64,000 nt of DNA from Candidatus Aenigmatarchaeota archaeon (GCA_039091535.1 JAWCLW010000001.1:11881-75880), one strand, 5' to 3'. Counted from the first letter of the stretch, positions 3,642 to 14,950 are shown. Notes: generated by a model not told the origin, from the sequence alone. Program-made: numbers and translations.

Positions 3642-3772
3642 CCCCTGATAGCTCAATGGTGCAACAAAATGCATTAAAGAGCGCGTGGCTGTAGACGAGC
3701 TCTATTGAGCTTGTCACCAGTAGGTGCTCGGAAATTACCATGAGGTTGGGAGTTCGAATCTCCCTCAGGGGA
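3642..3772 (+). tRNA. tRNA-Tyr (anticodon GTA) with C1:G72 pair and two predicted introns (about 16 nt in the D-loop, 42 nt at 37/38)
   Basis: Acceptor cccctga/tcagggg+A73 (C1-G72 is the archaeal Tyr identity pair); U8 A9; D stem gctc...gagc separated by 24 nt; anticodon stem cgtgg/ccatg enclosing ctGTAga plus 42 extra nt with a cgagc/gctcg helix; T arm gggag-ttcgaat-ctccc. Confidence 0.75.
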
Positions 3773-5220: not shown

Positions 5221-5547
5221 ATGAATATTGCACGCATAAAACTTACAGGAAGAGATCCAAAACAATTAGATGAGTTATGTAGAGAAATTAAGGATATCGC
5301 TGAAAAGATAGGTGTATCTGTTTCTGGTCCAATACCATTGCCAACAAAGAAATTAAGAATACCTGTCATGAAAACACCATGTGGTGATGGTATGCATCGT
5401 GGCGGTGGTGGTGGAAACTGGGAGACATGGGAGATGCGTATACACAAGCGCATACTTGATGTTGGTGCAAATGATCGAGTTCTGAGACAAATAACAAGGA
5501 TTAAGATTCCTCATGATGTTAATATTGAAGTTGAATTGACAGATTAA
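5221..5547 (+). CDS. rps10: Ribosomal protein S10 (uS10)
   Basis: ARIKLTG...GPIPLPTK...EMRIHKRILDV signature; start chosen at the internal Met, the ORF track starts at 5209; carries a Gly5 insertion (HRGGGGGNWE). Confidence 0.9.
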   Translation: MNIARIKLTGRDPKQLDELCREIKDIAEKIGVSVSGPIPLPTKKLRIPVMKTPCGDGMHRGGGGGNWETWEMRIHKRILDVGANDRVLRQITRIKIPHDVNIEVELTD

Positions 5548-5676
5548 GTTGATCTTTTTTTAATTATTTTTGAAAATGAGTGTTTATACTCATATATATA
5601 ACATTAAAAGTTATGTTGCGAAACGAAAGTAAAAATATATAAATTCATATTACTAATAAAAATCAAGTGATTTTTC

Positions 5677-6354
5677 ATGAACCTGATATTTTTTGGTCCA
5701 CCAGGCTCTGGAAAAGGAACATACGCATCAAGAGTTTCATCATCACTAGCCATAGCACATATATCAACAGGTGATATGTTCCGTGCAGAAGTTAATGCAA
5801 ACACAAAATTGGGAAAATTAGCTGATAAATACATGAAAGCTGGAAAACTTGTTCCTGACAAAATAACAATAAACATGCTAAAAAAAAGAATAAAAAAACC
5901 TGACTGTAAAAACGGCTTTATTTTAGATGGTTTCCCAAGAACAATAGCACAAATGAAAGCTTTAGAAAAAATTGTAAAAATAGATTTGGTGCTAAATTTT
6001 AAACTTCCAGAAAAAATGATAATACAAAAAACACTTGCAAGAAGGGTTTGCGAAAAATGTGGGGCTATATATAATATTGCCGATATAAAGGTTAAAAATA
6101 TACATCTGCCACCACTTCTTCCAAAAAAAGATGGTATCTGTGATAAATGTGGTGGTCATTTAATACAAAGAAAGGATGATAATATAAAAACAATAAAAGA
6201 TCGTCTAAATATTTATAAAAAACAGACAAAACCTCTTTTAGAATACTATAAAAAGAAAAGATTAATGAAAAATATAAATGTAATTGGCCCACCTGAAGTA
6301 ATGGTGCCAATAATTATTGATGAGATAAAGAAGAATTTTGAAACAAATATATGA
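5677..6354 (+). CDS. adk: Adenylate kinase, long bacterial-type with Zn-binding lid
   Basis: P-loop GPPGSGKGT; lid CEKCG...CDKCGG (CxxC...CxxC); 225 aa. Confidence 0.9.
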   Translation: MNLIFFGPPGSGKGTYASRVSSSLAIAHISTGDMFRAEVNANTKLGKLADKYMKAGKLVPDKITINMLKKRIKKPDCKNGFILDGFPRTIAQMKALEKIVKIDLVLNFKLPEKMIIQKTLARRVCEKCGAIYNIADIKVKNIHLPPLLPKKDGICDKCGGHLIQRKDDNIKTIKDRLNIYKKQTKPLLEYYKKKRLMKNINVIGPPEVMVPIIIDEIKKNFETNI

Positions 6355-6658
6355 TTTATTGATTAATTTTTGATTATTTCTTTCATAATTTTTTCTATTC
6401 TCTTTACTCTTTCTTTTACTGGTATTGTTATTGGTTTGTATCAACTTTCGAATATATTTAATAAATAATGTTATGTATATTCAAAGCTTCTTCTACACTC
6501 TCAACTCTTATACCATCTTTCTTATAATGGTAGCATATCAAGAATGAATACAATATCATATTTTATCTTTTTTTGTCACATCGATTATCTCTTTTGGTGG
6601 TTTTATTTTTCTGAAATAGTAATAAGCAAGACAATCAACAACCCCTCTATCTAAAAAA

Positions 6659-6895
6659 ACAATTTTTGTATTTTTATTGGATCATGTACAGGAAAGACAG
6701 AAACAATCAAAATGTTTGAGAAAAAAAGGATATTATGTTGTACGCGAATTTGCTACAGAGATAATAAAGAAACAGAAGGCATACGGCGGTGATTTATTTC
6801 CACATACAAAACCATTAGAATTTCAATTAGAGTGTTTAAGAAGACAACTCGAAAAAGAAAATAAAACACCTACAACACGAAACATATTTTTATAA
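6659..6895 (+). pseudogene. AAA_28-family P-loop ATPase, frameshifted remnant
   Basis: Walker A GSCTGKTE at 6679-6702 is in a different frame from the downstream KKGYYVVREF...GGD...FQLECLRRQLE ORF; the join is at an A7 homopolymer near 6720-6727; no start codon in the P-loop frame after the stop at 6652. Confidence 0.5.
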
Positions 6896-6908
6896 ATTGA
6901 AATAAAAA

Positions 6909-7538
6909 TTATTTGAAAATTTCCCCCGTTTCCATTGACCAGAATAATAAATCAAGATGTGATAATGGTATGTTTATTTTTTTAGAAAATTCTATCATTT
7001 TCTTTTCTATTTCTAGATATTTCTTTTTTGTAAGTGTTTTTGGTATTTCATCGATCACGTTATGTTTTTTCAAATTTCTTAAAATATGTCTATCTAAGAT
7101 TGTAATATCATTGTAAAATCCAATATTTCTTAGAAAATGACTTGCCTCCTTCATGCCAAAACCTTTTATATTTTTTGCAAGATATTCTCGCATACTATTG
7201 ATATCATTAAATCTTTCTAATTTTTCTTTAATTTTTATTTTACCATTTTTAGAAAAGAAATTTCTTGCACTAATAATATATTTTGCTTTGTTATTATGAA
7301 ATCGTACGCCAACAAGATATCTTGCAATATCATTCTCATCTCCAACATACAACAACTTATTTTTAACCAATTTCTCAATCGCTTCCCAACATATTTTTGC
7401 TTTTGATTGTGGTGTGAGTAAACAAAAACATAATTCAGCAAAAATTTCTTTGTCTGATTGTTTATAATTTTTTCTAAATTTATTAAGATGTTTTTCTATT
7501 TCTCCTTTCTTTTTCTGATAGACTTCTTGTAATTTCAT
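6909..7538 (-). CDS. ogg: 8-oxoguanine DNA glycosylase/AP lyase, archaeal Ogg2-type (HhH-GPD)
   Basis: GFGMKEASHFLRNIG...ILDRHILR helix-hairpin-helix/GPD motif; 209 aa. Confidence 0.8.
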   Translation of the reverse strand: MKLQEVYQKKKGEIEKHLNKFRKNYKQSDKEIFAELCFCLLTPQSKAKICWEAIEKLVKNKLLYVGDENDIARYLVGVRFHNNKAKYIISARNFFSKNGKIKIKEKLERFNDINSMREYLAKNIKGFGMKEASHFLRNIGFYNDITILDRHILRNLKKHNVIDEIPKTLTKKKYLEIEKKMIEFSKKINIPLSHLDLLFWSMETGEIFK

Positions 7539-7591
7539 ATTTAATGAATAATTAAAAAGATATTAAAAATAATAAAATAGAAAGAATTATT

Positions 7592-8425
7592 ATGTTGATA
7601 ACAAAAGATATTCTCAAAAAAATTTATAAAAAACGTAATGTATGGTCGCATAAAGGTAATTTTGGAAAATTGCTTATAGTTGGTGGCAGTAAGTTATATT
7701 CTGGTTCACCTACACTTGCTGCATTGGCTGCTTATAGATCTGGTTGTGACTTAGTAACAATAATGGCGCCTGAACGTGCTGCAAATATTATTGCAACATT
7801 TTCACCTGATTTAATAACATATCCATTAAAAGGGGATTATCTTAATAAAAATCATTTGAAAGAAATTTTTTCGCTTGCTAAAAATTATGATGCAATTGTA
7901 ATTGGTGGTGGGTTATGCAAAAATAAAGAAACCATATTTTCAGTAAATAAAATATTAAAGAGAATAAGTATACCAATTGTTGTTGATGCAGACGCAATTT
8001 ATGCAATAAAAAATAAATTGGATAAAAATTTTGTACTCACCCCACATGCACATGAATTTTTTGTACTAAGTGGAATAAAATTAAAAAATAATATAAATTA
8101 TATGAAAAAAATTGTTAAAGATACTGCAAAGAAATTTGAATGTGTCATCCTGCTGAAAAGCCATGTAGATATTATATCTGATGGTAAAAAGGTTGCATTA
8201 AATAAGACAGGAAATCCATTCATGACAAAAGGTGGTACAGGTGATACATTAGCAGGTATATGCGGTGCTTTATTAGCAAGAAAAATTAATCCATATTATG
8301 CAGCATGTGCTTCTGCATATATAAATGGAAAAGCAGGTGACTTAGCTGCAAAAAAATATGGTGAAAGTATGTTAGCATCCGATCTATTGAATGAAATAAA
8401 AGATGTGATAAAAAGAAACTCATAA
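7592..8425 (+). CDS. nnrD: ADP-dependent NAD(P)H-hydrate dehydratase (YjeF C-terminal domain)
   Basis: HKGNFGKLLIVGGS...GSPTLAALAAYRSGCDLVTI...GGTGDTLAGI motifs; 277 aa. Confidence 0.85.
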   Translation: MLITKDILKKIYKKRNVWSHKGNFGKLLIVGGSKLYSGSPTLAALAAYRSGCDLVTIMAPERAANIIATFSPDLITYPLKGDYLNKNHLKEIFSLAKNYDAIVIGGGLCKNKETIFSVNKILKRISIPIVVDADAIYAIKNKLDKNFVLTPHAHEFFVLSGIKLKNNINYMKKIVKDTAKKFECVILLKSHVDIISDGKKVALNKTGNPFMTKGGTGDTLAGICGALLARKINPYYAACASAYINGKAGDLAAKKYGESMLASDLLNEIKDVIKRNS

Positions 8426-8536
8426 CTGATAAAATTGTAATTTTTTGATTATTATTTAAGTTTGTAAATTGTGTTTTTGTTGTCTTCTTTAATCTATCTT
8501 GTAGAAAAAGGAATAATTATTGTGGTTTTTTACACT

Positions 8537-10021
8537 TTATCTTTCAATGGTATTAGTTGTTTCAATACCATAAAATGATGTTTCACGACTGCCATGCTCG
8601 CTTAAACGTTCTAAAATTGCATTTTCTCTAAATTCTTTTAAATTTCTACAACCAGCATTACTCATAGACGACTTTACTATATTTGCATCATATTCTATGT
8701 TTGGCTTAAGTCTGCCTCTATATTTTACTATACCTTCAACACCCTCAGGGAAAAATGTTTTAATTGTTTCATGACTATATCTACCTAAATTCATAGCTCT
8801 TCTAGAGCCTTCTCCCCATATCTCTTTGTATTTTATTTCGTTTTCTCTTTCATCTGGTTTATCTATAGGTTTTTTTTCTGCGTCAAGTGGTGTACCCTCA
8901 GCCTCAAAAAATTGATTAAAATATTTACCCATCATCAAAGCATCAGCACCAATTGCCAAAGCTATAACCATATCACCAGTATTTTCTATAGAACCATCCA
9001 TAATAACTGGTATATATTTTCCTGTTTTGTTAAAGTATTCATCTCTTTTATTAACAACTTCTATTAAAGATCTCGCTCCTCCACGACCAACGCGCTTAAC
9101 TTCTGTTGTTGTACAAATAGAACCAATTCCCATTCCAACCTTAATAATATCTGCACCATGAGAAACCAAGCAATCAAAACCTTCCTTTGTTACAATGTTA
9201 CCACCACATATTGGAACATTCGGATATTCTTTTTTGAATTCTTTTATAACATTTACTGCCCAATAATTGTATGCGTCAGATGTATCTATAGAAATTAAAT
9301 CAACACCTGCTTCTATAGCAACATCTACTCGTTTCTTCCAACCTTCGTACGTATCTATGGAAACAGCTATATAGTTTGGTCTATCTTTTTTGAAAGCAAA
9401 TTTAATTAGATGACCTTCATTGTCTAAAATTGGCATAATTTTTTTTCCATTTTTTTCCATATATTCCAAAATTTTATCTTCTGTTGCTGTAATAAGACAA
9501 AAATCAATGTTTTCTCTATTTTTATTTTTTTTCATTAAATCCTTCATCTTTGCATCATTAGGATGCTTTTCCGGACTTATATAATAGAATACACCAAGAT
9601 ATTTTCCATATTCATTTACTATTGGAATTGTTGAGTGTCCATATTTTTTTATTTTTTCTTCATAAACCCTTTCAAATTTATCTTCTGGACCCGCTGTGAT
9701 TATTCCTGGATAATTATGAATTATCAGTTTATCTTTTTTTGCCTTAATATCTTTTATAATTCTAATAATCTCTTCTAATTCTAAAGAACGTGGGAGAAAT
9801 GGTATCATCCCATTTCTTGCCACCTCTAATGCCATTTTGTATCCAGTAACAGAACGCATAGCAGCTGGTATAAATGGGAACTTTAATTTAATCAAAGGGG
9901 AAAGTTCAGTTTCTATATTAATATTTTGTATTATGCAATTCTTATCTGTATAGCTTGGTAAAAGAACATAATCTTTAAAACTTGTTGATCTCTCATCATC
10001 TCCTCTAATTTCTTTTGCCAT
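8537..10021 (-). CDS. guaB: IMP dehydrogenase family protein with CBS pair
   Basis: TIM-barrel IMPDH/GMPR fold with catalytic-loop KVGMGIGSICTTTEV; CBS-like insert; 494 aa. Confidence 0.65.
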   Translation of the reverse strand: MAKEIRGDDERSTSFKDYVLLPSYTDKNCIIQNINIETELSPLIKLKFPFIPAAMRSVTGYKMALEVARNGMIPFLPRSLELEEIIRIIKDIKAKKDKLIIHNYPGIITAGPEDKFERVYEEKIKKYGHSTIPIVNEYGKYLGVFYYISPEKHPNDAKMKDLMKKNKNRENIDFCLITATEDKILEYMEKNGKKIMPILDNEGHLIKFAFKKDRPNYIAVSIDTYEGWKKRVDVAIEAGVDLISIDTSDAYNYWAVNVIKEFKKEYPNVPICGGNIVTKEGFDCLVSHGADIIKVGMGIGSICTTTEVKRVGRGGARSLIEVVNKRDEYFNKTGKYIPVIMDGSIENTGDMVIALAIGADALMMGKYFNQFFEAEGTPLDAEKKPIDKPDERENEIKYKEIWGEGSRRAMNLGRYSHETIKTFFPEGVEGIVKYRGRLKPNIEYDANIVKSSMSNAGCRNLKEFRENAILERLSEHGSRETSFYGIETTNTIER

Positions 10022-10033
10022 AATTGATCGATA

Positions 10034-10408
10034 TCACCACTTCTTAAAGAAGCTTGTACTTAATACTTTCAAATCAAAATTACCATTATTGTTTTGACCA
10101 CTTAAAATACCATATATGTTTTCATTTGTTTTAAGATTTTTTAATTCAGAGTATAGCATAATATCTTTATCCCCATCTTTGTCTATATCTATTAATTCTA
10201 CTTTTTCTATTCTTTTTATTTCATAATTGTTTATTTTTGGATCGATTAGTCTATTTCCTTTTTCGTCGATTATTTCGTTTTTAGTAAAATAAATCAATTC
10301 ATATTTACCATCTTTGTTCATATCAACTAAACCGATATAATTTTTGCTTGGTTGACAAGATATCAATGTCGAAAATACTAACGGTAAAACAAGCTTTTTA
10401 ATCTGCAT
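10034..10408 (-). CDS. Secreted lipoprotein-like protein with DKDGDKD calcium-binding-like motifs
   Basis: Signal peptide plus lipobox-like LISC; DxDxDG-type motifs. Confidence 0.4.
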   Translation of the reverse strand: MQIKKLVLPLVFSTLISCQPSKNYIGLVDMNKDGKYELIYFTKNEIIDEKGNRLIDPKINNYEIKRIEKVELIDIDKDGDKDIMLYSELKNLKTNENIYGILSGQNNNGNFDLKVLSTSFFKKW

Positions 10409-10509
10409 TGTACCACCCCATTTTATTTATTAAATATAAAAATAAAAAATATTTAAAATTATATAAAAAATCAAATCGGATAAAAATACATTACAAATGA
10501 ATTACAAAT

Positions 10510-10704
10510 TTATTTCTTCACAATCTTTATGCATTTTGTAGGGCAGATATCTGCTGCTTCTTGGTTGCATCCTATGCTATTCAATTCTGTTTTCTTAGGT
10601 TTTGATTTATCGCCTTTCATCTCCCAATTCTCAGGACATACAGAAACACATGCCCCACATCCTATGCATTCACTAACATTGTGAATTATTTTTATTTTTG
10701 CCAT
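10510..10704 (-). CDS. fdx: 4Fe-4S ferredoxin (small)
   Basis: CIGCGACVSVCP plus a second partial motif C..C..CP; 64 aa. Confidence 0.8.
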   Translation of the reverse strand: MAKIKIIHNVSECIGCGACVSVCPENWEMKGDKSKPKKTELNSIGCNQEAADICPTKCIKIVKK

Positions 10705-10733
10705 ATTTATCCACCCACCTATTCTTTATCGAT

Positions 10734-10994
10734 TCATTCACGAATTTTATTTTTAATTGCATTATTCATTTCTCTGAGCATTTCATCCAATTCCTTTTTT
10801 GTCATGCCATGAGAAATGGCGCCTTGCTCTATTGTTTCATAAAGTGCAACATGACAACCTACACAATGTAGTCCATAATCAAACATTATATTAATGGTTT
10901 CTGGATATTTTCTCACAACCTCGCCAAGTGATGTATCTTTTGTAATTATATTAATTTCTTTTTGTTTTTTTGTTTTCTTCTGCATAAAAATCAC
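10734..10994 (-). CDS. DUF1858 / ScdA-N-like redox disulfide protein
   Basis: GEVVRKYPETINIMFDYGLHCVGCHVALYETIEQGAISHG matches the hybrid-cluster-protein-associated redox disulfide domain. Confidence 0.7.
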   Translation of the reverse strand: MIFMQKKTKKQKEINIITKDTSLGEVVRKYPETINIMFDYGLHCVGCHVALYETIEQGAISHGMTKKELDEMLREMNNAIKNKIRE

Positions 10995-11041
10995 ATAGTT
11001 ATTTTATTATGAATAATATTTATAATTTTGATATAATGGTC

Positions 11042-11137
11042 TCAACTGCATAAACCAAATCCACAATTCCTACAAAATGTACAACCCTCCTGATGAATCA
11101 AAGGAGAGCCACAATCTGGACAAATTTCTTTGTTCAT
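11042..11137 (-). CDS. 31-aa six-Cys Zn-ribbon mini-protein (MNKEICPDCGSPLIHQEGCTFCRNCGFGLCS)
   Basis: Absent from the ORF track (<60 aa); strong SD GAGGTGA 7 nt upstream of the ATG; 12 nt downstream of the cobA stop on the same strand; CxxC-x9-CxxC-xx-C-x4-C. Confidence 0.5.
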   Translation of the reverse strand: MNKEICPDCGSPLIHQEGCTFCRNCGFGLCS

Positions 11138-11153
11138 TGGAATCACCTCATTT

Positions 11154-11729
11154 TTAATATTGTATGCCTTTTGTTGTAGGCAATTTCTCCGGAATTTTTA
11201 TCTCAACAATCTCATTGACAAAATCTGATTTGTCAATTAATTCTTTTGGTGCATATCTCCCAGTCAAAATAACATTTGTTCTTTTTGGTATTTTATTTAA
11301 AAAATCTATTACATCATCAATGTTTAGAAGATTCCAGTGCAAGGCTAAATTAATTTCATCTAAAATCAATAGATGTGGTTTCTTTTCCTTCATAATCTTT
11401 TTTGCAAACTCTAATGCTTCATTTGCAAGTTTTTTGTCAAATTCTTCCAAATTCTTAACAATAAATTTTTTTCCACCGAATCTAAATGTTTTTGAACCTT
11501 TATTATTAACTTTGAACCACCCAGGACGACCAAACTGATATATTTCATAATAAGGTCTCAACCTCTTTTCTATTTTGCATTCTCCAATATTTTTCCACCA
11601 TTTTAAAAACTGTATTATAATAACTTTTTTTTTATGGCCAACAGAGCGCAAAGCTAGACCTAATGCATTTGTTGTTTTACCGCCACCAGAACCAGTATAA
11701 AGATAGATATGTCCCATAATTATCATCAT
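11154..11729 (-). CDS. cobA: Cob(I)alamin adenosyltransferase, CobA/CobO/BtuR family
   Basis: P-loop YTGSGGGKTTNALGLALR, then VIIIQFLK...LLILDEIN, characteristic of CobA-type ATP:corrinoid adenosyltransferases. Confidence 0.85.
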   Translation of the reverse strand: MMIIMGHIYLYTGSGGGKTTNALGLALRSVGHKKKVIIIQFLKWWKNIGECKIEKRLRPYYEIYQFGRPGWFKVNNKGSKTFRFGGKKFIVKNLEEFDKKLANEALEFAKKIMKEKKPHLLILDEINLALHWNLLNIDDVIDFLNKIPKRTNVILTGRYAPKELIDKSDFVNEIVEIKIPEKLPTTKGIQY

Positions 11730-11754
11730 GATGTATTTAGTTAGTTTTTAATCA

Positions 11755-13839
11755 CTAAATAAAACAGGTTTCACATGTTTCATTCTTTTTTATTTGCTCT
11801 TCTGAGTCTATATTTAATACTTGTTTCTCTCTACTACCATATCTATAAATTGTAAGACCCTTACATTTCAGTTTCCATGCAAGCATAAATGCCTTCTCAA
11901 CATCATGTGGTGTAGCAAAATTAGGGAAGTTTATAGTTTTTGAAACAGCATTATCTGTATATTTCTGAAATGCTGCCTGAACTCTTATATGCCATTCTGG
12001 CGAAATATCTAATGCTGTAACAAACAATTTTCTAATTTTTTCAGGTATCTCATCTATTCCTTGGATTGAACCACGTTTTGCTATCTTTTTCATTAATTCC
12101 TCACTATAGATTTCTTCTTCTATCGCAATTTTTTCAAAGAGTGGATTTACCTCGACCAATTCATGACCTAAACTTTCAGATACATCACGAATATAAGAAA
12201 TAGCAAATATTGGTTCAATACCAGAAGAGCAGTTAGCAATAACACCGATGCTTCCTGTAGGAGCAATTGTTGTTGTTGTTGCATTTCTCATTGCCTTATA
12301 TTTATTTTCCCATATGCTTCCGGAAAAGTTCTTAAAAGAACCTTTCTCTATTCCAAGTTCTTCGCTCATTTTCTTTGATTCATCGTTAATAAATTTCATA
12401 ACATTTTCAGCGGTTTTTATGGCCTCTTCGCTCGCATAAGAAATTCCTAACTGTATCAAGAAGTCTGCAAAACCCATGACACCCAAACCAATTTTTCTAT
12501 TAGCTTTTGTCGTTTCCTCTATCTCTTTTATTGGATATTTATTTGCATCAATAACGTTATCTAAAAATCTGACTGCTAATCTCACTGTATTTCTTAGTTT
12601 TTCCCAATCTATTTTTCCATCTTTAATCATTTTTGTAAGATTTATGCTGCCTAAATTGCAACTTTCATATGGTAGTAGTGGTTGCTCGCCACAAGGGTTC
12701 GTAGATTCTATTTTACCTATATGTGGTGTAGGATTGTGTCTATTTATTTCGTCAATAAATATTACGCCAGGTTCACCATTTTTCCATGCCATCATAACTA
12801 ATAAATTGAATACAGCACGTGCTGGTAAACGCTTAACTGCTTCCTTTGTTCTTGGATTTATCAAATCATATTCATCATTCTTTTCGACTGCCCTCATGAA
12901 ATCATCTGTAACTGCTACAGATATATTAAAATTAGATAAAATACCTTCGCGCTCTTTGCATGTTATAAATTCTAAAATATCTGGATGGTCTACACGCAAG
13001 ATGCCCATATTTGCTCCACGTCTCTTCCCTCCTTGTTTTATAACCTCGGTTGCTGTGTTAAATACTTGCATGAATGAGATAGGTCCAGATGCAACACCAC
13101 CCGTGGAGCGAACAACATCACCTTTTGGTCTAAGATTACTAAAAGAGAAACCTGTGCCACCACCACTTTGATGAATTAAAGCTGTATTTTTCACAGCTTC
13201 AAAAATGCTTGCCATATCATCTTTAACAGGTAAAACAAAACATGCAGAAAGCTGTCCCAAACCTGTTCCTGCATTCATCAATGTCGGTGAATTAGGCAAG
13301 AATTCAAGATTTACCATCATGCTATAGAAATTCTCTTCTAACTTTTGAACTTCATCATCACTTTTTCCATAATTTTTTTCAATACTTGCAATTGTTTTTG
13401 CAACTCTTCTAAACATTTGTGATGTAGATTCAATTATTCTTCTATTCTCATCTCTTCGTAAATATCGTGAAGCAAGAACCTTTATTGCATTCATTGATAA
13501 TTTTAGTTCATCTGTTACACCTAAAAGTGCTTTTGCCTCTCTTATCTCTGAGCGCTTTTGTCGGTACAAAATATAAGCCTTAGCAGTTTTTGCATGACCT
13601 TCTTCTATTAAAATCTTTTCAACTATATCCTGTATCTGTTCCACTGTTGGTATTTCATCATCTTTTATTTGTTCTTCCAATTTTTTAACAACCTTATCTG
13701 CAAGCTTTTTGGCTAGTTCATAATCTCTTCCACCAATAGATTGAGCTGCTTTAAAAATAGCATTAGCGATTTTTTCTTTTTCAAATGGGACAATCCTACC
13801 ATCGCGTTTTCTTATTTGTGTGAATTTTGTCATTTTCAA
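11755..13839 (-). CDS. nrdJ: Ribonucleoside reductase, class II (adenosylcobalamin-dependent) with N-terminal ATP-cone
   Basis: ATP-cone (KRDGRIVPFEKEKI); catalytic NPCGEQPL; 694 aa; adjacent cobA; no intein. Confidence 0.85.
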   Translation of the reverse strand: MKMTKFTQIRKRDGRIVPFEKEKIANAIFKAAQSIGGRDYELAKKLADKVVKKLEEQIKDDEIPTVEQIQDIVEKILIEEGHAKTAKAYILYRQKRSEIREAKALLGVTDELKLSMNAIKVLASRYLRRDENRRIIESTSQMFRRVAKTIASIEKNYGKSDDEVQKLEENFYSMMVNLEFLPNSPTLMNAGTGLGQLSACFVLPVKDDMASIFEAVKNTALIHQSGGGTGFSFSNLRPKGDVVRSTGGVASGPISFMQVFNTATEVIKQGGKRRGANMGILRVDHPDILEFITCKEREGILSNFNISVAVTDDFMRAVEKNDEYDLINPRTKEAVKRLPARAVFNLLVMMAWKNGEPGVIFIDEINRHNPTPHIGKIESTNPCGEQPLLPYESCNLGSINLTKMIKDGKIDWEKLRNTVRLAVRFLDNVIDANKYPIKEIEETTKANRKIGLGVMGFADFLIQLGISYASEEAIKTAENVMKFINDESKKMSEELGIEKGSFKNFSGSIWENKYKAMRNATTTTIAPTGSIGVIANCSSGIEPIFAISYIRDVSESLGHELVEVNPLFEKIAIEEEIYSEELMKKIAKRGSIQGIDEIPEKIRKLFVTALDISPEWHIRVQAAFQKYTDNAVSKTINFPNFATPHDVEKAFMLAWKLKCKGLTIYRYGSREKQVLNIDSEEQIKKNETCETCFI

Positions 13840-14254
13840 AACCTTTTTATGATTTATCTAAGTAATGAAAAAAAATTATTACAACCACACACCTGAGTAG
13901 TTTTATTTATGAATTTATTTAAAAATACTTTTCTCTTTTTTGAATTCTATATCAAAAAATAGAAATGACTTCACAGGAATGACGAAAGATTTATATATTG
14001 GTTTGAGCAATTAATATCCTCTTATTTATTTTCCTAGTTCTAATAAGACCCCATTTAAATTATTTGATAAATGAAATATTTTTTTAACATTTAAAGAGCA
14101 TATAATTCATATTTTAAATACTTTTCCAAAAATAAAAATAATAAATTCCGTGAATTTTATGTTTTTAAATTTTACATTGTTTGCGGAATACAAAAAGCCC
14201 TTGATTAATGTTATTACGTGATTTACAAAATAGGGCCTATTTACAGGTGAAAAA

Positions 14255-14950
14255 ATGGTTACAGTAGATGAGGCTGTTATAGCAAAATACGAAAAAGATG
14301 GAAAACATTTCGAAATTCTTGTTGACCCGGAATTAGCCTATGAGCTTAAGGATGGTAAATCTGTTTCTATACAGAAAATGCTAGCTATAAATGCTATTTT
14401 TACTGATGCAAGAAAGGGCGACAGACCATCAAATGCTGACATATTAAAAATATTTGGTACAAATGATATTGAAAAAATTTCAGAATTTATAATAAAAAAT
14501 GGTGAAGTGCAATTAACAACAGAATTCAGAAGAAAAAAGATTGATGAAAAGAAAAGACAGATTGCTGCATTAATAAGTAGATTTGCAATAAATCCACAAA
14601 CAAGATTGCCACATCCACAAGAACGTATTTTAACAGCAATGGAACAAATAAATATATCAATCGACCCATTCAAACCAGCAGAACAACAAGTTGATAATGT
14701 TGTAAAACTATTGAAATCTATTTTACCTCTTTCTCTAGAAGAGCTCACACTTATTGTTGAGATACCTGCAAAATATACGGGTAGGGCCTATGGAATTTTA
14801 AAAGAATACAATGTCCATCAAGATAAATGGCTCAACGACGGTACCCTAGTTGCAAGGATCACAATACCAGCTGGACTAAAAGAAAACATTTACAGAAGAC
14901 TTGGTGCCTTGTGCGAAGGTAATTTAAAAATCGAAGAGGTAAAGAGGTAA
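14255..14950 (+). CDS. sdo1: Ribosome maturation factor SBDS/Sdo1
   Basis: VILVDPELAYELKDGK N-terminal FYSH domain; 231 aa; followed by the exosome genes. Confidence 0.9.
   Translation: MVTVDEAVIAKYEKDGKHFEILVDPELAYELKDGKSVSIQKMLAINAIFTDARKGDRPSNADILKIFGTNDIEKISEFIIKNGEVQLTTEFRRKKIDEKKRQIAALISRFAINPQTRLPHPQERILTAMEQINISIDPFKPAEQQVDNVVKLLKSILPLSLEELTLIVEIPAKYTGRAYGILKEYNVHQDKWLNDGTLVARITIPAGLKENIYRRLGALCEGNLKIEEVKR

Follow-up and report, generated by a model that had tools for sequence, protein, structure and literature searches.

A free-standing six-cysteine finger of the NrdJ type predicted beside a class II ribonucleotide reductase gene in an Aenigmatarchaeota archaeon

About 70% of non-monomeric class II (B12-dependent) ribonucleotide reductases (RNRs) carry a C-terminal cysteine-rich domain (CRD) with six invariant cysteines. 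These bind zinc, and when the reductant is specific to the tail the enzyme needs all six of them to turn over (Loderer et al. 2017, PMC5704485). In the model of S. nassauensis NrdJd, cysteines 1, 2, 4 and 5 hold the zinc, and cysteines 3 and 6 are adjacent and presumed to form a redox pair; thioredoxins, glutaredoxin and cell lysates all failed as electron donors for this model enzyme (PMC5704485). The CRD element is a zinc finger that follows an IscU-like domain, and the NrdJb protein of split enzymes consists of both (Burnim et al. 2022, PMC9669993). In enzymes with this finger, the two cysteines that do not hold zinc act as a dithiol, by which the disulfide of the active site is reduced again once a turnover is complete. 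We have analysed a 64,000-nucleotide (nt) stretch of DNA from Candidatus Aenigmatarchaeota archaeon (GCA_039091535.1, JAWCLW010000001.1:11881-75880; hereafter the window, with positions counted from its first letter), in which a cluster headed by the class II RNR gene nrdJ includes a 31-codon open reading frame (ORF), here called the mini-ORF. As judged from sequence comparisons, the mini-ORF is very probably homologous to the six-cysteine zinc finger that ends class II RNRs (the CRD/NrdJb finger). The finger itself is already known from class II RNR tails; what appears to be new is its encoding as a free-standing archaeal mini-protein.

The closest precedent for a separately encoded finger is NrdJb of P. 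aeruginosa, which performs thiol-disulfide exchange in trans for NrdJa (Crona et al. 2015, PMC4520616). The NrdJa/NrdJb split is restricted to Proteobacteria and, apart from viral cases, was presented as the sole example of a divided RNR (PMC4520616); the split NrdJa is among the class II proteins whose C-termini are without cysteines (Burnim et al., PMC9669993).

The mini-ORF and its relation to the NrdJ finger

The mini-ORF (11042-11137, minus strand; MNKEICPDCGSPLIHQEGCTFCRNCGFGLCS) encodes 31 amino acids (aa) with cysteines C6, C9, C19, C22, C25 and C30, hence a spacing C-x2-C-x9-C-x2-C-x2-C-x4-C, and a single residue follows the last cysteine; its predicted tryptic peptide is EICPDCGSPLIHQEGCTFCR. 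Among the NCBIfam models it matched NF006417 (B12-dependent RNR) at positions 730-759 of 759, the extreme C-terminus (E 1.7e-7). No Pfam model spans the finger. To guard against a merely generic likeness to zinc ribbons, a hidden Markov model was built solely from 51 non-redundant fingers that belong to NrdJ ORFs 450 aa or more in length, taken from phage contigs and from two of the related loci described below, L021 and L036 (loci are designated by L numbers and proteins by P numbers). With this profile the mini-ORF scored 44.1 bits (E 1e-12) and was the sole match among 1636 six-frame segments of the window, the next-best segment reaching 5.0 bits; the maximum over 5000 composition-preserving shuffles of the mini-peptide was 15.1 bits. 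A degenerate six-cysteine DNA motif occurred once in the window and in none of 100 shuffles. The mini-ORF is 50-58% identical to the fused fingers of L021 and L036, with identical spacing and flanking residues, and it keeps all 8 invariant and both nearly invariant positions of the finger family.

In the AlphaFold2 prediction made from the single sequence, the mini-protein is a three-stranded ribbon (pLDDT 88.5). Foldseek searches with this model returned generic zinc ribbons alone (TMq 0.6-0.76), with non-significant E-values. The mini-protein shares two CxxC knuckles and the three-stranded ribbon with rubredoxin and with generic zinc ribbons (TFS/Rpb9, L37ae and small archaeal fingers of the HVO_0416 type), but it differs from them by two extra conserved cysteines, and no specific family reaches its cutoff. 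A rubredoxin identity was rejected, as no rubredoxin was among the Pfam or NCBIfam matches; the sole PDB link was a weak match to a designed mini-rubredoxin (E 0.65). An NrdR-like regulator was likewise rejected, since Zn_ribbon_NrdR was not among the Pfam matches. The initial annotation of this region had suggested that the mini zinc ribbon or rubredoxin-like peptide could be a novel electron donor or regulator. The redox role is supported and can be made more specific, the mini-protein being a putative detached NrdJ redox finger, but the protein is neither novel nor rubredoxin-like.

The spacing of the S. nassauensis CRD finger (x2, x9, x2, x2, x5; Loderer et al. 2017, PMC5704485) differs from that of the mini-ORF by one residue in the last interval (x4), and the two also share the CPxCG and CxxCG knuckles, the very C-terminal position and a strong profile similarity. 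By analogy with the NrdJd model, C6, C9, C22 and C25 are predicted zinc ligands, and C19 and C30 a predicted redox pair. Unlike a CRD, the mini-ORF is a separate 31-aa polypeptide encoded after cobA, with no linker and no TSCPD/IscU-like domain (no TSCPD motif was found anywhere in the window, and the region that precedes the L036 finger is a TSCPD domain, PF12637), and the NrdJ partner keeps a class-I-like CxxC tail. The arrangement resembles that of NrdJb in that the finger polypeptide is encoded apart within the nrdJ operon, on the same strand, 617 nt past the nrdJ stop and with only cobA between. However, NrdJb is a 229-aa protein made of an IscU-like domain and the finger, binds NrdJa tightly and is encoded next to it (PMC4520616); the mini-ORF is the finger alone, in an archaeon whose NrdJ has a CETCFI tail, and it has neither the size nor the domain composition of NrdJb. 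Lacking a TSCPD/IscU-like domain and standing apart from the RNR polypeptide, the mini-ORF is a full member of neither group.

The mini-ORF is missing from the NCBI record (in which its neighbours are MEM7819230 and MEM7819231), from the Logan gene calls and from a collection of 15 billion proteins. A second, independent assembly (L038) is identical over 5814 nt, and the mini-ORF is uncalled there too. Its ATG is preceded by the Shine-Dalgarno sequence GAGGTGAT (11142-11149, minus strand, read from the sequence) with a spacer of 4 nt; the ORF had thus been correctly presented as an unannotated one with a strong Shine-Dalgarno sequence. The gap between the cobA stop and this ATG is 16 nt, instead of the 12 nt proposed initially. 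The strong Shine-Dalgarno sequence and its spacing, the intact invariant positions, the C-terminal placement of the finger and the confident structure prediction, together with the recurrence of stand-alone homologues on many contigs (see below), lead us to conclude that the 31-codon ORF is most probably a real gene. Two other origins were considered and rejected: a CobA-finger fusion produced by stop-codon readthrough, because cobA and the mini-ORF are in different frames, and the fission of an ancestral fused nrdJ, because 30 of 35 relatives have a CxxC tail and no finger. As these tails occur without a finger, the stand-alone finger gene was, on sequence grounds, probably acquired and is not a fission product.

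The nrdJ cluster and related loci

The window has a GC content of 29.6%. Five genes, nrdJ, cobA, the mini-ORF, a DUF1858 gene and a ferredoxin gene, are packed tightly on its minus strand with gaps of 25, 16, 56 and 29 nt from nrdJ to the ferredoxin gene. Profile searches confirmed the four annotated genes; all five genes and their order are as initially described, and the 25 nt between nrdJ and cobA agree. nrdJ (11755-13839) matches PF03477 (ATP-cone), PF00317 and PF02867; its probable ATG is at 13833, which gives a product of 692 aa, the length also obtained by a gene call. NrdJ scored above the cutoffs of the equivalog models TIGR02504 (766 bits, cutoff 400) and NF006417 (1000.6 bits, cutoff 961; model positions 8-586 of 759 covered), and its translation contains the motifs SACFV, NPCGE (the thiyl-Cys loop) and ESCNLGS, with the active-site cysteine pair present, which identifies it as a class II RNR. 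The protein ends in ...NETCETCFI, a CxxC tail; no fused finger is present, and no TSCPD domain (PF12637) was detected in a Pfam search. cobA (11154-11729) encodes an ATP:corrinoid adenosyltransferase of the cobA/cobO/btuR type, with the P-loop GSGGGKTT kept. It matched PF02572 (E 5e-44, 150.9 bits, gathering score 25.7) and stayed under the equivalog cutoff of TIGR00708 (130.8 bits, cutoff 167.75).

Archaeal genes surround the cluster (SBDS, Rrp4, Rrp41, Rrp42). On the same strand, the interval 8537-10408 contains a 124-aa ORF with a signal-peptide-like N-terminus and a weak FG-GAP match, and an IMP dehydrogenase gene; these two extend the cluster, so that genes of nucleotide metabolism are grouped here. 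Three tRNAs were found with Rfam, none of them inside the cluster. A tRNA match at 3642-3772 stretches over 131 nt although the model has 71 positions, which points to an archaeal tRNA with an intron. A promoter and terminator scan of 10000-14300 gave results at chance level, the scan being a bacterial one, ill suited to archaea.

A genome scan provided 37 related nrdJ loci, from Aenigmatarchaeota, Bathyarchaeia, Altiarchaeota, Nanoarchaeota and others. In 15 of the 37, nrdJ has cobA as the next gene downstream, which makes the initial idea of cofactor supply by cobA plausible. None of these loci has a stand-alone finger. Among 35 complete relative NrdJs, 30 end in a C-x2-C tail like the CETCFI of the window, and two (L021 and L036) have a finger. 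The closest locus, L001, encodes a NrdJ 79% identical to that of the window and has an unrelated gene after cobA. In L021 (Altiarchaeota, 5995-9339), NrdJ is 65% identical, with the finger fused by a 27-aa linker and no TSCPD domain, and is followed by cobA, FeThRed_B (the catalytic subunit of ferredoxin:thioredoxin reductase, FTR; PF02943, E 2e-23) and a 2x[4Fe-4S] ferredoxin gene. Together with the redoxin genes and the operon ferredoxins described below, the occurrence of a fused finger in an nrdJ-cobA context ties the finger to RNR function, and the FTR subunit and ferredoxin of L021 are a candidate ferredoxin-dependent reductant for finger-type NrdJ.

Other redoxin genes are found beside nrdJ in relatives. 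A 75-79-aa glutaredoxin (Grx)/NrdH-like gene with a CPYC or CPEC motif is located directly upstream of nrdJ in L001 (5577-5816) and L027 (Nanoarchaeota, 5465-5692), and a Grx-like gene is present within a few kb of nrdJ in L003, L004 and L030. Motif searches and tblastn detected no Grx, thioredoxin motif or FTR in the 64-kb window; because the window has no such gene where relatives have a Grx beside nrdJ, its content is compatible with displacement of the usual redoxin by the finger. Redoxins of the Grx/NrdH type, which reduce the CxxC tails of class I and II RNRs, are like the mini-protein in being small dithiol proteins encoded beside an RNR gene; the latter has no thioredoxin fold, but a zinc ribbon plus an extra cysteine pair.

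In five Aenigmatarchaeota-type loci (L002, L003, L004, L030 and L034) the order is nrdJ, a gene for a membrane protein of about 103 aa, cobA and a ferredoxin gene. The ferredoxin is therefore a constant of this operon. The hydrophobic protein of about 103 aa (6539-6850 in L002) is conserved among these loci, has no Pfam match and is not present in the window. The CobA proteins of L021 (8210-8785), L026 (7708-8322) and L027 (8221-8964) contain a Cys-rich insertion, C...CxxCxxC, which is possibly an Fe-S site; the CobA of the window has no insertion, so that a link between the finger and these insertions was rejected. Finally, the NrdJ ORFs of L034 and L036 are continuous (1114 and 1220 aa) across insertions of about 1.2-1.3 kb (7143-8371 and 6483-7801, respectively), which are probably inteins.

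The DUF1858-ferredoxin pair

The gene that follows the mini-ORF (10734-10985, minus strand; MEM7819231.1) encodes an 83-aa redox-disulfide protein of the DUF1858/TIGR03980 type with a CxxC motif (HCVGCH). It matched PF08984 (E 1.6e-17, 63.7 bits, cutoff 32.2) and TIGR03980 (E 2e-21, 75.6 bits, cutoff 44.95) and is related to PDB entries 2k5e and 2k53. Its cysteines C41 and C44 are invariant in 41 homologues. Selenoprotein forms of DUF1858 with a CxxU motif exist (PMC9312934), which argues that the CxxC is redox-active. The last gene of the cluster (10510-10704, minus strand; MEM7819230.1), preceded by a GGTGG-type Shine-Dalgarno sequence, encodes a 64-aa ferredoxin with a single [4Fe-4S] cluster (Fer4_13, E 3e-10), of the T. 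maritima/P. furiosus type (match to 1rof/1vjw, E 1.7e-8). The protein collection contains no protein 90% or more identical to either of the two.

Homologues of the window DUF1858 protein (50-69% identity) are nearly always paired with a small ferredoxin. The gene order is ferredoxin-DUF1858-Grx-DsbA-like in L167, eIF1A-ferredoxin-DUF1858 in L169 and L176, and Grx-FTRB-nrdD-nrdG-DUF1858-ferredoxin in L171 (4166-8423) and L194. In L174, ferredoxin and DUF1858 genes are directly followed by an NrdR-like gene and a class II-type RNR gene with a variant finger; the latter two genes (8402-11485) encode a protein with a zinc ribbon and an ATP-cone, and an 870-aa RNR that ends in CPTCKKELIHEGGCHGGRCPDGHVDSC. 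In 80 metagenome DUF1858 loci, a ferredoxin gene was found within 150 nt in 28, and class III nrdG and/or nrdD directly upstream of DUF1858 in 16; where the sequence upstream exceeds 1.5 kb, nrdG and/or nrdD occur in 10 of 45 loci. The succession nrdD-nrdG-DUF1858-ferredoxin was observed in L171, L187, L192, L194, L198, L221, L224, L247 and others. The window ferredoxin is closest to the DUF1858-paired ferredoxins (45-50% identity, compared with 39% to the other Aenigmatarchaeota cobA-adjacent ferredoxins). The DUF1858-ferredoxin pair is thus a mobile unit enriched beside ribonucleotide reductases. As DUF1858 has no assigned function, this recurrent link looks new. It also provides comparative support for the reductant module initially proposed for this cluster, as does the lack, here, of the glutaredoxin gene that adjoins nrdJ in relatives; the ferredoxin may, however, serve CobA instead.

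Ferredoxin-linked genes in archaeal RNR operons (L171 and L194, and L021) recall the class III RNR system of Methanosarcina barkeri, for which Wei and colleagues (2015, cited in PMC5704485) reportedly described a chain from ferredoxin to an FTR-like ferredoxin:disulfide reductase and then to NrdH. L171 has both an FTR catalytic subunit and a Grx, and L021 has FTRB. The window differs from the M. barkeri system in that it contains neither an FTR catalytic subunit (CPC...CPC...CHC) nor NrdH/Grx, and no catalysis of ferredoxin-dependent disulfide reduction is known for DUF1858. The pair has two possible roles: it may feed a disulfide relay, or it may provide single electrons for cofactor activation (the CobA step, or the NrdG cluster).

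Stand-alone fingers elsewhere and possible roles of the mini-protein

An exhaustive phmmer search of 1.84 billion representative proteins (E < 1e-3) gave 133 matches, of which 74 share the exact six-cysteine spacing. Thirty-six of these 74 are at most 60 aa long; the motif lies within three residues of the C-terminus in 66, and a single residue follows the last cysteine in 47, as in the mini-ORF. A few are NrdJ fragments, but most begin with Met and have unrelated short leaders. Viral contigs were scanned with the degenerate DNA motif, which gave at least 120 loci; among the matches listed, the motif is in a NrdJ ORF of at least 450 aa in 58 and in an internal ORF of at most 80 aa in 26. One stand-alone finger of 30 aa (P0030) recurs on 16 or more contigs, the longest of them 98 kb, and its neighbours had no match in PHROGs or Pfam. 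Stand-alone fingers of 28-80 aa are thus found widely in metagenomes and phages, for the most part at a distance from any RNR gene; in the loci examined, adjoining genes encode DNA methyltransferases, a dNMP-kinase-like protein, portal proteins, helicases and glycosyltransferases. Stand-alone finger genes adjoin DNA methyltransferase genes (MT-A70/ParB-N, N6_N4_Mtase) in three independent viral loci, L039, L074 and L099, the last of which has two finger genes. Six proteins of 58-99 aa (P0024, P0078, P0082, P0099, P0106 and P0107) combine an N-terminal C2H2-like motif, C..C...F....E...H...FH, with a C-terminal six-cysteine finger, which is an undescribed two-finger architecture.

The operon position, the fused finger of L021 and the NrdJb precedent link the finger to the RNR, and by analogy with NrdJb we give an even chance to the proposal that the mini-protein serves NrdJ in trans as a dithiol relay. 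In this proposal its C19/C30 pair would pass electrons to the CxxC tail of NrdJ or straight to the active site. The finger would in turn be recharged by a donor further upstream in the chain, most obviously the DUF1858 protein and the ferredoxin encoded next to it. The finger would possibly replace the glutaredoxin/NrdH-like gene that relatives have beside nrdJ. CobA would make or repair adenosylcobalamin, and it too may be served by the ferredoxin, as reductant in the step from Co(II) to Co(I). Homology, gene anatomy and comparative context are observed here; expression, metal binding and every electron-transfer step are inferred. Several observations weigh against such a relay. The initial annotation had named lack of conservation of the mini-ORF in syntenic relatives as refuting its proposal, and in a narrow sense this is what is observed: none of the 15 relatives in which cobA is linked to nrdJ has the mini-ORF after it, L001, the closest, included. 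Even this nearest relative is distant, however. No six-cysteine motif was found in the 80 metagenome DUF1858 loci or in eleven other DUF1858 loci scanned. Outside this window, no RNR is near a stand-alone finger in the neighbourhoods examined; where genes close to the phage copies could be annotated, they encode DNA methylases, portal proteins and helicases. The NrdJ of the window already has a CxxC tail of its own, so that a second shuttle is not obviously needed, and a 31-aa protein has no docking domain. Moreover, the isolated CRD failed to reconstitute the activity of truncated S. nassauensis NrdJd in vitro (PMC5704485).

Three other explanations were weighed against the relay. A distinct possibility, although short of an even chance, is that the DUF1858-ferredoxin pair supplies low-potential single electrons for cofactor activation and not for turnover (reduction of Co(II) to Co(I) for CobA in class II, of the radical-SAM cluster of NrdG in class III), the finger being linked to neither protein. 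CobA requires a reductant, which in Salmonella is flavodoxin; the ferredoxin gene directly follows cobA in all five of the other Aenigmatarchaeota-type loci that have neither DUF1858 nor finger (L002, L003, L004, L030 and L034), and the pair directly follows nrdG in class III loci. In addition, a one-electron ferredoxin needs an FTR-like catalyst to reduce a disulfide, and the 64-kb window has none. However, the invariant CxxC of DUF1858 and its CxxU variants are typical of thiol-disulfide chemistry, the pair adjoins glutaredoxin and DsbA-like genes in L167, the genes beside the finger-type NrdJ of L021 include both a ferredoxin and an FTR catalytic subunit, and the pair also occurs away from any RNR, beside eIF-1A.

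It is rather unlikely, in our view, that the mini-ORF belongs to a widespread family of small zinc ribbons, common in phages, whose function has nothing to do with ribonucleotide reduction (DNA or protein binding, for instance), and that chance or horizontal transfer placed it between cobA and the DUF1858 gene. The main argument for this is that stand-alone fingers have no genomic link to RNRs outside the window: about 26 of 121 viral motif instances listed are ORFs of 28-80 aa with no RNR, Grx or ferredoxin in the locus, the neighbours being DNA methyltransferases (L039, L074, L099), portal/capsid genes (L088) or an SNF2 helicase (L100), and five cellular or metagenomic contexts show no nrdJ. 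The absence of the mini-ORF from syntenic relatives points the same way. Against it, the mini-ORF lies within an nrdJ cluster, the related NrdJ of L021 bears this finger as a fusion in an operon of the same kind, and the mini-ORF keeps the extreme C-terminal placement typical of a redox tail; its score with the fused-finger profile is on a par with that of typical stand-alone members (rank 28 of 71). We consider it very improbable that the mini-ORF is an untranslated relic, left by the decay of a once-fused NrdJ finger or of another nrdJ copy. None of the 37 related loci shares it, two gene finders do not call it, and an open frame of 32 codons is not in itself rare at 30% GC (about 6% by our own estimate). 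But its ATG stands 4 nt after GAGGTGAT, the six cysteines and the invariant P, G and G are all intact, no NrdJ-like or TSCPD-like sequence flanks it, and an unselected sequence rich in TGY and GGN codons should decay in a genome of 29.6% GC.

The trans-acting dithiol relay can be extended to a complete, thioredoxin-independent chain, in which electrons would pass from the ferredoxin to the DUF1858 CxxC protein, then to the free six-cysteine finger, the NrdJ CxxC tail and the active site. In its broadest form, finger-type NrdJ enzymes would owe their reduction in the cell to ferredoxin-linked partners (DUF1858, or the FTR subunit found in L021), and the unannotated stand-alone fingers of microbes and phages would be portable adaptors for relay chemistry. 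We regard the whole of this extended scheme as improbable.

In the search for the natural electron donor of finger-type class II RNRs, this locus and L021 provide small candidates that can be tested in vitro: a minimal finger of 31 aa that is easily synthesised, the adjacent DUF1858 CxxC protein and ferredoxin, and the FTR catalytic subunit of L021. The analysis also exposes a widespread family of six-cysteine proteins of 28-80 aa, often missed by gene finders or generically named, and DUF1858, a domain of unknown function, gains a recurrent genomic link to ribonucleotide reductases.

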